From: Escherichia coli
GTDB taxonomy: Bacteria > Pseudomonadota > Gammaproteobacteria > Enterobacterales > Enterobacteriaceae
Reading direction: 5' to 3' (one strand)
Assembly: GCF_003334355.1 (NCBI RefSeq)
Contig: NZ_QOWP01000086.1
DNA: 1,550 bases
This document shows, piece by piece, positions 1-1,550 of the stretch. The notes beneath the pieces are model-generated. The model was not told the origin of the DNA. It worked only from the letters and a program-made list of their open reading frames with translations, and did not search any database. Within the stretch, counting starts at the first letter, position 1. The number at the start of each line of letters is the position of its first letter. The position numbers were made by a program, and so were the translations under genes.

Positions 1-1550
1 GATGGCCACGGGATTGGTGCGCCGACTGGGTAGCTTTCTGGTGGAAGATTTTTCGAGGTATAAACTTCTGCCCAGTCTTCCTCAAAACCATAGCCATCTC
101 TTGAGGAACGGTAGAACAGACCTCCATTTCTGTAATGTGCCTTCATCTGCAAGGTCCGGCAACTTCCGACTCCGGTATAGAAGTTAACCAGAATATAGGT
201 GTCGCCAGAGCGGGTGACATTGTAAGCGCCTGATTCGGCATTCCAGGGAACACCACCATCCGCATCGGCATATGTATCCGTTGCCCTTCTGGCAAAAGCA
301 GCCACATGCGCGGCGGTTAAAGTGATATCAGTAGAACCATCAAATGGAACACCGGATATTTTTCTTGCAGTCTGAAGTTTTGTAGCAGTTGCAGCATTAC
401 CAGTGGTGTTCTGATTACCCGTAGTGTTTACACCTGGAAGGTTAATATTTGCAGAACCGTCGAAAACAACTCCACCGATAGATCTTGCCGTCTGCAATTT
501 CGTGGCTGTACTTGCATTACCATTCAATGAACCAGTTAATCCACCTGTAACAGACAACGGACCTGAAACTGTTCCTCCGGTTGTTGGCAGTGCTCCAATA
601 TCTGATGGTGTAGGTTTCTGATGTGAGCTATACATCGTATAAACAACACCATAGGTAACGCTGGAAGGCTTACTCGCTGAATATGTTGGCGAGGTATAAA
701 CAGAAACTGACGCATTTGCAGTACAATCCCAATGGATATTTACACTCGTCGCATAATTGCCAATCTCAACGTAAATATCATATGTATCGCCGGATGTGTT
801 GATCCAGGCGAAATTCGTTAATCCGACGGCTGTACGCTTCCACAAAGCCCCGGTAATTCCTTTGGGGTTTCCATTGCCTGCTCGTAGAACCAGTTCTGAA
901 ATGCCTGCCTGATGTGGGGAACCGACGTTGTAACCAGCGCCACCAATCAATGCGATGTAAACGATGGAACTCGCTTGTGGCATGGTAACCGTAGCCAGTT
1001 TGAACCACCCAGCCCCGCCAGAGAAAGACATCGTTACTGAATTTAAAGTACCAATATCTTTCGGCGTTAATGTTATATCCGCAGTCAGTGCTTTTCCGTT
1101 AACTTTTCGGTTAGATGGCACCCTGCTATTCGCATTGTCATTGGCTGCTTTAACTGCTTTTGGCGTTGCGGCCAGCGATTCACTGGTGCTATCAACAGCA
1201 CTGCTAAGTTTCACAACACCTTTAGTTGTAAGGCTTGCGTCTTCCATCGCAACTGCACCGGCAATCTCTTCAGCACGATCAGCAGCAGCTTCCGCACGGG
1301 TCGCAGCGGATTCAGCAGTAGTTTTGCTCTGAGATGCTGCCGTCGCACTGCCTGCCGCCTCTGTTGCTTTCGTGGATGCCGTCGTGGCGCTGCCCCGCGC
1401 TGCTGACGCCTGTCTGGTCGCCTCATCTTTTGAAGCAGACGCCGATGATGCCGATGACGCCGCCGAACTGGCTGACGATGCGGCTGCCGTTTTTGAGGAT
1501 TCTGCACGGGTTTCCGACGCTTTCGCGTTCGTTTCGGATGTCTTCGCTGC
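1..1550 (-). CDS. Phage/prophage side tail fibre protein (lambdoid Stf-like), internal fragment; both ends lie outside the window
   Basis: Minus-strand frame with codons at + 1550..1548 down to + 5..3 is open for all 516 codons. This frame is absent from the ORF track, consistent with no in-window stop. Translation begins AAKTSETNAKASETRAESSKTAAASSASSAASSASSASASKDEATRQASAARGSATTASTKATEAAGSATAASQSKTTAESAATRAEAAADRAEEIAGAVAMEDASLTTKGVVKLSSAVDSTSESLAATPKAVKAANDNANSRVPSNRKVNGKALTADITLTPKDIG and ends ...SKNLPPESYPVGAPIPWP. The Ala/Ser-rich rod, the SESLAATPKAVKAA motif, the KLQTAR..FDGS..I.L repeats and the GAPIPWP motif are all characteristic of enterobacterial side tail fibre proteins as I recall them. 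Family assignment is from memory, not a search. Confidence 0.9.
3..23 (-). other. GAPIPWP junction motif at the window edge
   Basis: The last seven complete codons of the in-window translation read G A P I P W P (minus-strand GGC GCA CCA ATC CCG TGG CCA). As I recall it, this is the first part of the GAPIPWPSD motif shared by lambda Stf-type and other tail fibre proteins; the expected following residues lie beyond + position 1. Confidence 0.7.
318..398 (-). repeat. Tail-fibre repeat unit 2 (protein-level repeat NAATATKLQTARKISGVPFDGSTDITL)
   Basis: Residues 385-411 of the translation; same TATKLQTAR-x-I-x-GV-x-FDGS-x-x-I-x-L pattern as unit 1, 40 residues downstream of it. Confidence 0.8.
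438..518 (-). repeat. Tail-fibre repeat unit 1 (protein-level repeat NASTATKLQTARSIGGVVFDGSANINL)
   Basis: Residues 345-371 of the translation; matches unit 2 at 20 of 27 positions. Confidence 0.8.
531..1031 (-). other. Unassigned central domain of the fibre (about 165 aa), possibly a beta-rich module
   Basis: Residues 174-340: MSFSGGAGWFKLATVTMPQASSIVYIALIGGAGYNVGSPHQAGISELVLRAGNGNPKGITGALWKRTAVGLTNFAWINTSGDTYDIYVEIGNYATSVNIHWDCTANASVSVYTSPTYSASKPSSVTYGVVYTMYSSHQKPTPSDIGALPTTGGTVSGPLSVTGGLTGS. Composition is rich in G, T, S, V, Y and W with alternating hydrophobic residues; I cannot assign a named motif from sequence alone. Confidence 0.4.
1143..1172 (-). other. Conserved tail-fibre motif LAATPKAVKAA
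   Basis: Residues 126-136 of the translation (SESLAATPKAVKAAND). As I recall it, the (S/T)ETLAATPKAVK motif recurs in lambdoid and related enterobacterial tail fibre proteins. Confidence 0.7.
1248..1550 (-). other. Ala/Ser/Thr-rich low-complexity segment of the fibre (putative N-proximal shaft region)
   Basis: Residues 1-101 of the in-window translation are dominated by A, S, T with scattered K/E/R (e.g. KTAAASSASSAASSASSASAS, TRAEAAADRAEEIAGA). The DNA here is visibly more GC-rich than the rest of the window, about 65% in one hand-counted 60-nt block versus about 38-45% in blocks further 5' on the + strand. Confidence 0.75.
1440..1457 (-). repeat. Short tandem 9-nt repeat (2 units) encoding SSA-SSA within the Ala/Ser-rich segment
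   Basis: Minus-strand codons TCA TCG GCA / TCA TCG GCG; + strand reads cgccgatgatgccgatga at 1440..1457. Confidence 0.6.

Follow-up and report, generated by a model that had tools for sequence, protein, structure and literature searches.

The Ala/Ser-rich tract of an Escherichia coli prophage side tail fibre gene is very probably the distal end of a heptad-based coiled-coil shaft

The Ala/Ser-rich tract in the 1,550-nucleotide stretch of Escherichia coli DNA analysed here (the window) is very probably the distal end of the proximal shaft, an alpha-helical coiled coil, in a lambda-type side tail fibre, and we hold the heptad-register explanation set out below, taken as a whole, with the same high confidence. 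The meaningful repeat in this tract is a 21-nt heptad, and a 9-nt duplication that an earlier sequence-only reading had pointed out is incidental. Features of this kind have already been described in the literature, and the finding is an ordinary one in which nothing departs from the published picture.

Frame 0 of the minus strand runs without a stop codon across all 1550 bases of the window, yielding 516 codons. A megablast search of complete E. coli genomes matched the window in 3,830 of 5,426 genomes, with the best match (99.7% identity) in EC2341, inside CDS WP_210833249.1, which is annotated as 'prophage tail fiber N-terminal domain-containing protein' and comprises 1075 codons. The EC2341 fibre gene lies in a decayed lambdoid prophage between an Ail/Lom (lom) gene and a tail fibre assembly gene (tfa). 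The order gpJ, Ail/Lom family protein, fibre gene and tail fibre assembly protein is annotated at three prophage loci (L001, L002 and L003), and corresponds to the J - lom - stf - tfa arrangement of lambdoid side tail fibres. In one of these prophages (L001), the terminase and tail genes are truncated. Most host prophages look defective, and selection may therefore have ceased to act on some alleles. Only short, overlapping open reading frames (ORFs) were listed in the other frames of the window. A plus-strand ORF at 964-1332 (122 aa) and an Arg-rich ORF in minus frame 1 at 1211-1507 (98 aa) were rejected as by-products of GC-rich low-complexity coding DNA; in all related genomes, the gene annotated here is the fibre in frame 0.

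Searches with the full-length EC2341 protein established the layout of domains around the tract. The Pfam family PF08400 (phage_tail_N), characteristic of side tail fibres, matches residues 1-134 (E = 1.5e-71), outside the window, while a Collar domain is found at residues 866-913 and Phage_fiber repeats are weakly matched at the C-terminal end. Sequence searches of the PDB align the Ur-lambda side-fibre collar structures 9E7M and 9MGH with residues 1-94 (E = 1.8e-51), and Mu tail fibre protein S with residues 454-505 (PDB 5yvq) and 772-866. The T4 gp37 tip (2XGF) matches residues 861-1075 (E = 5e-88), which places a gp37-like receptor-binding tip at the end of the protein; only its first 12 residues (861-872) fall in the window. 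PHROGs likewise returned tail fibre families. Coordinates of the features in the window are collected in Table 1.

Table 1. Features located in the window (coordinates in nucleotides; residue numbers refer to the full-length EC2341 protein).
Feature	Position	Strand	Remarks
Internal part of lambdoid prophage side tail fibre gene (StfR-like)	1..1550	-	Residues 357-872 of 1075; ORF open at both window ends
Conserved junction motif EDASLTTKGVVKLSSAVDSTSESLAATPKAVKAAND, predicted helix end and start of distal fibre	1137..1244	-	AlphaFold2 helix ends at residue 461; motif common to Mu tail fibre protein S (PDB 5yvq)
Very probable distal end of A-x-x-A-x-x-S alpha-helical coiled-coil shaft (PCoil / proximal coiled-coil domain)	1242..1550	-	Residues 357-459, the last 14.7 (~15) of 51 heptads; continues past window end
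Zone in which alignments between the window allele and most E. coli alleles end	1261..1306	-	Megablast alignments end at positions 242-245, 260 or 290 of the window 1180-1550 query
21-nt tandem period	1268..1317	-	TRF: period 21, 2.4 copies, 76% matches; heptad layout
Imperfect 9-nt tandem GCG TCA TCG / GCA TCA TCG / GCG TCT GCT (ASS-ASS-ASA)	1438..1462	-	TRF: period 9, 2.8 copies, 87% matches; rare slippage site

In the full protein, the tract is flanked by the PF08400 collar domain on one side and the distal fibre on the other, and consists of 51 heptads with the pattern A-x-x-A-x-x-S, whose register is unbroken from residue 103 to residue 459. Ala occupies the fourth heptad position in 47 of the 51 heptads and the first position in 35, the remainder carrying Lys or Glu, and Ser occupies the seventh position in 37. 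The Fourier power of the Ala positions exceeds that of all 2000 shuffles at periods 3.5 and 7 for the full tract, and at period 3.5 for the portion in the window. [quoted passage not shown] Because the window includes only the last 14.7 heptads, the tract flagged originally is the final section of a considerably longer one.

The same period is evident in the DNA. Base identity in the window portion of the tract is enriched at a lag of 21 nt (z = 3.3, reached by 2 of 3000 shuffles) and of 42 nt (z = 2.9), and near-repeats within the tract are in most cases spaced by a multiple of 21 nt. The protein near-repeats of the KTSETNA type noted previously are thus real, and their true period is 7 residues, or 21 nt. 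Exact direct DNA repeats in the window tract do not exceed 13 nt. When run on the whole gene, TRF reported only the 9-nt repeat and an unrelated 12-nt repeat; since the heptad array was not among its results, the array is too diverged for tandem-repeat detection.

Structure prediction with AlphaFold2 (monomer, residues 330-540, 30-sequence alignment) yielded a single uninterrupted helix spanning residues 331-461 with pLDDT values of 95-98, a predicted alpha-helical character that agrees with PCoil. The predicted helix stops at a conserved EDAS-L-T-T-KG-V-V-K-LSS junction, beyond which confidence falls; the columns of this motif are invariant in the 30-homologue alignment. An alpha-helix rises by approximately 0.148 nm per residue, and the 357 residues of the array compute to a rod of approximately 53 nm. 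The view that this sequence forms the rod of a fibre shaft is borne out in the form of a heptad coiled-coil rod.

A different explanation is that the tract is an intrinsically disordered low-complexity linker, serving as a flexible tether and not as a structured rod. Its composition is suggestive in this regard, as it is rich in Ala, Ser and Thr and has almost no large hydrophobic residues. The Ur-lambda cryo-EM models resolve only residues 1-94, a sequence search of the PDB gave no solved structure covering residues 95-453 or the tract, Pfam has no model over the tract in the full-length protein, and NCBIfam has neither a model for the tract nor a family for the full protein. However, a disordered tether is difficult to reconcile with a strict 51-heptad register maintained over 357 residues and conserved across alleles, with insertions and deletions that are quantised in heptads, or with the high-confidence AlphaFold2 helix. 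Moreover, a homologous PfN-PCoil fragment is alpha-helical by CD, melts cooperatively and reversibly near 50 C and appears as a stalk by EM (PMC3368898). We therefore give almost no credence to the disordered-linker explanation.

The domain in question was named PCoil by Ghosh et al. 2012 (PLoS One, PMC3368898), who studied the EHEC prophage collagen-like fibres EPclA and EPclB. Those authors described an Ala-x-x-Ala/Ser-x-x-Ser heptad with a predicted coiled coil, the CD, melting and EM properties given above, and PCoil length differences that are multiples of seven. Like the PCoil of EPclA and EPclB, the tract directly follows a PF08400 PfN domain, is Ala/Ser-rich and of low complexity, uses the same heptad and varies in length by multiples of seven. 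It differs in that the rod is much longer (51 heptads versus roughly 101-245 in EPclA), and in that it leads into a DAS-T-KG-V-LSS junction and a gp37-like fibre, whereas EPclA and EPclB carry a collagen triple helix and a PfC domain.

A second close precedent is gpStf of Ur-lambda, in which a collar domain (residues 1-91) and a linker (92-101) precede a trimeric proximal coiled coil (102-393) (Sci Adv 2025, PMC12617516). That shaft was modelled with AlphaFold3 and cryo-ET and not at atomic resolution (PMC12617516). The two proteins share a homologous N-terminal collar, a linker, a coiled-coil shaft from about residue 102 and a T4 gp37-like tip, but differ in rod length and middle modules. StfR of the E. 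coli K-12 Rac prophage is similar over the first 1487 nt, which span the N-domain and the whole tract and align gaplessly at 93% identity, and the matches carry the RefSeq label stfR; it diverges past the distal end of the rod (position ~290 of the window 1180-1550 query), where it carries other distal modules. Ala-rich heptad cores are also found in Plasmodium vivax MSP3 and honeybee silk, although these literature analogues are a resemblance only, being unrelated proteins with different oligomeric states. Among PCoil / proximal coiled-coil domains the tract is a long one, and a Mu-S-like junction and then a gp37-like tip come after it.

The sequence-only reading had placed a 9-nt tandem duplication at 1440..1457. 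The duplication is real, but it is imperfect and slightly offset: the plus-strand units gccgatgat and gccgatgac, which match at 8 of 9 bases, occupy 1441-1458, and the gene-strand units GCGTCATCG and GCATCATCG occupy 1443-1460. It lies inside heptads 383-396. When the codons of the tract were shuffled 5000 times, a period-9 tandem with at most one mismatch arose in 24.6% of cases; the duplication is therefore not beyond chance, and base identity at a lag of 9 nt is not enriched in the window tract (z = 0.2). Its 2.4-2.8 copies at 87-92% identity differ from the many near-perfect tandem copies of a contingency-type tract. The unit is in frame and its copies number fewer than three, and phase variation was rejected on these grounds.

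Alleles differing by exactly one repeat unit were sought in E. coli with queries from which one 9-nt unit had been removed or to which one had been added. Among the 3,100-3,400 records covering the query in this targeted search, the allele lacking 9 nt was found in two genomes that encode an identical protein (WP_106884276.1) and the allele with 9 additional nt in one genome (WP_249869005.1), all as an intact CDS. These counts are lower bounds, as a diverged allele carrying one of these indels would be ranked behind wild-type matches aligned with a gap. Slippage at the 9-nt site happens, but it is rare.

Length was then compared among close homologues. All of the 120 closest clusters of proteins (95-99% identical across the first 529 residues) have the same spacing between the N-domain end and the junction motif. 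The end-anchor TTKGVVKLSS misses 55 of these 120 homologues, which carry the variant TKKGIVQLSS, and a looser pattern covers all of them. In an evenly spaced megablast sample with the N-domain plus tract as query, all 31 tract-spanning E. coli matches were single alignments, down to 86.5% identity, with equal query and subject spans in 30 and a single-base difference in one. In a second E. coli sample, with window 1180-1550 as query, no gaps were present in 60 matches; across both samples, none of the 91 alignments contains an in-frame gap. Frequent copy-number polymorphism among close relatives, as expected of a contingency-type tract, was not observed, and the comparison of close prophage copies suggested in the sequence-only reading thus revealed no variation in tract length.

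These data bear on the proposal that the tract is a slippage-prone simple sequence whose short DNA repeats often expand or contract, tuning shaft length between strains. The one-unit losses and gains in intact, annotated coding sequences are what such a process would produce. However, variants amount to approximately 3 in 3,400 records, the close clusters and sampled alignments are uniform in length, and a repeat with so few imperfect copies is equalled in a quarter of codon shuffles. A 3-residue change alters the rod by only ~0.45 nm out of ~53 nm and breaks the heptad register, and across the family, large differences in length come in multiples of 7 aa and map away from the 9-nt repeat. We consider this proposal very unlikely. 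Alleles of the family do differ in shaft length, as had been suggested, but 9-nt slippage is not supported as the driver.

A 3-residue change of this type is reportedly what Brown, Cohen and Parry in 1996 called a 'stutter' or 'stammer' in coiled coils. Residues 383-396, the (Ala-Ser-Ser)n micro-repeat, might conceivably act as a hot-spot at which slippage is tolerated and a 3-residue stutter or stammer locally unwinds or overwinds the rod, but we regard this as highly improbable. If it were true, the distal receptor-binding part would be re-phased or hinged relative to the collar, giving small-step tuning of fibre geometry. The occurrence of the -9 and +9 alleles in intact genes is compatible with such a hot-spot.

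Larger differences in length are found among more distant alleles, nearly all of them in whole heptads (7 to 224 aa). With only the N-domain as query, 654 relatives were retrieved from 50%-identity representatives. For those with the motif and standard N-terminal numbering, the junction motif starts at residue 466, 361, 354, 263, 249 or 242, and all differences between these positions are multiples of 7. In a more distant subgroup the motif is at 416 and 318, a difference of 98 residues or 14 heptads. Pairwise gaps relative to the reference are 7, 35, 63, 70, 105, 112, 161, 217 and 224 aa, in agreement with the multiples of seven of PCoil, while one pairwise alignment splits a 98-residue difference into 32 + 66. 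The heptad register remains constant through the tract in most of the diverse members. Exceptions are the P0147 class (with two fragments), in which a 253-residue deletion equal to 36 heptads plus one residue is joined at a repeated TAAA, and the three alleles that differ by 3 aa. Both kinds of exception count against the heptad rule and indicate that off-register changes are not strictly forbidden. A 774-aa representative (P0153) was considered as lambda Stf and rejected, as only 82 of 94 residues are identical to the 9E7M chain.

Module exchange is also apparent among these alleles. In E. coli GPEC484-624 (L005), the first 25 heptads are common to both proteins and an in-register switch occurs directly after AAKTSETNA (residue 281), beyond which other heptads and then an unrelated distal domain follow. 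With the window 1180-1550 query, only 473 of 3813 megablast records cover at least 80% of the query, and the same alignment breaks recur at 1310-1328 and 1470-1487 of the N-domain plus tract query. This zone of alignment loss is the distal end of the rod, and most E. coli alleles share the tract itself. The tract is common but alignments break where the rod ends distally, and it therefore acts like a conserved shaft on which the distal modules are exchanged. It is also present in plasmid-borne fibres (H73, H74 and H147) and in phage genomes of ~108 kb. As judged from these sequence comparisons, real length variation appears almost always to consist of whole heptads together with in-register module exchange.

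The elevated GC content of the tract was confirmed, as was its richness in Ala and Ser. Codons 1-101 (window 1248-1550) encode 37 Ala, 21 Ser and 13 Thr, together 70% of residues, and the GC content of this region is 0.611 compared with 0.471 in the rest of the window. By codon position, GC1, GC2 and GC3 are 0.574, 0.782 and 0.475 in the tract versus 0.489, 0.542 and 0.381 elsewhere in the window, so that GC2 carries 57% of the excess, and the GC3 difference inside the window is not significant. For the whole gene, tract GC was predicted from the amino acids of the tract given non-tract synonymous usage. The observed value is 0.618, the predicted value 0.582 and the non-tract value 0.494. Amino-acid composition accounts for ~71% of the excess on this basis, with ~29% left over. 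GC3, which had been proposed as a separate measure, is not equal across the gene: it declines from 0.59 in the N-domain through 0.51 in the tract to 0.40 in the distal part, and differs between tract and non-tract codons of the whole gene (Fisher p = 0.011).

The high GC content stems mainly from GCN, TCN and ACN codons. The attribution of the GC step to Ala codons therefore holds in the main (~70% explained) once Ser and Thr are included, but the rest reflects the GC3 gradient. This remainder, the fall in GC3 along the gene and the T4 gp37-like nature of the distal tip would each fit a GC step that marks, beyond amino-acid composition, a boundary between DNA segments of different origin. We regard this as a tentative and rather unlikely reading, given that the step is mostly one of GC2 (0.78 versus 0.54) and that the GC3 difference within the window is not significant. 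Furthermore, any segment foreign to E. coli by composition would be the AT-richer distal part and not the tract. The compositional outlier is this AT-richer, T4-like distal part.

We propose that the N-terminal PF08400 collar domains would anchor three chains to the tail, and that residues 103-459 would wind into a parallel three-stranded coiled coil whose a and d core is almost all Ala, with Ser at g. The 51 unbroken heptads would thereby form a thin rod of ~53 nm that sets the T4 gp37-like receptor-binding tip, and the distal domains with it, at a distance from the tail. An all-Ala a/d core is unusual for a stable trimer, which counts against the coiled-coil explanation. Sequence of this type was also called unusual for a coiled coil by Ghosh et al. 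(PMC3368898). Trimeric parallel packing and the spacer function are inferred from the literature on homologues (PMC3368898, PMC12617516).

Because the structure depends on heptad register, surviving length changes would be whole heptads (multiples of 21 nt). These changes may arise by unequal or illegitimate recombination between diverged heptad-coding repeats, or alternatively length may change by in-register swaps, for example at the AAKTSETNA motif, that exchange distal modules. The ASS-ASS duplication of 9 nt would be a by-product of composition that rarely slips to create register breaks of three residues in either direction.

The result allows the tract to be annotated as the coiled-coil shaft in a side tail fibre and has little significance beyond this. 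The heptad-step rule for length changes is re-confirmed on a wider sample, and the AAKTSETNA and EDAS-T-KG-V-LSS junctions are natural in-register splice points for receptor-binding modules or fibre length in phage engineering. Within the gene, the GC3 gradient marks the border between a conserved anchor and rod and an exchangeable distal part.

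GC3 was followed along the whole fibre gene in the E. coli EC2341 locus (L001:4933-8160), where it drops in steps from 0.59 in the N-domain to 0.51 in the Ala/Ser tract and 0.40 in the distal fibre. Such a profile fits a gene in which the anchor and rod are conserved and the distal modules joined to them came from a more AT-rich source.

Two relatives carrying the same N-domain, P0227 and P0228, have a collagen-like Gly-X-Y run (GPAGPAGPAG and GEKGEKGEPG) immediately before the DAS-T-x-KG-V-LSS junction at which the distal fibre starts. Because the run lies directly before this junction, a collagen triple helix is the occupant of the junction-adjacent position in these relatives. 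This placement matches the arrangement in the EPcl proteins (Ghosh et al., PMC3368898).

Within the distal fibre, the motif GNA-x-TATKLQTAR-x-I-x-GV-x-FDGS-x-[DN]I-x-L, roughly 28 residues long, is present twice, with the copies 40 residues apart. The DNA of the two copies is 63% identical, and the pair seems to stem from duplication of a repeat unit of the distal fibre that has no relation to the Ala/Ser tract.

Copies of the GNA-x-TATKLQTAR motif in the distal fibre
Feature	Window position	Strand	Full-protein residues
Motif copy	318-401	minus	740-767
Motif copy	438-521	minus	700-727

The EC2341 prophage is decayed (L001:969-4868): the annotation lists its terminase, lom and a tail assembly gene as pseudogenes, either truncated or frameshifted, while its 1075-codon fibre gene is still intact. 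One sampled E. coli match, H38 (NZ_CP091673.1, 525167-526659), spans 1493 bases against 1494 query bases, a single-base indel that would frameshift the fibre gene and make this a possible pseudogene allele.

A Pin-type recombinase gene lies shortly 3' of the fibre and assembly genes both in the related locus L003 (pinQ, L003:6169-6759) and, frameshifted, in EC2341 (L001:8775-9005), a layout known from invertible tail-fibre segments. Adjoining the frameshifted recombinase, at the prophage end and approximately 1 kb beyond the 3' side of the tail fibre assembly gene, is a gene annotated as a 'TIR domain-containing anti-phage reverse transcriptase' (L001:9190-10794), which appears to be a defence gene borne as prophage cargo.
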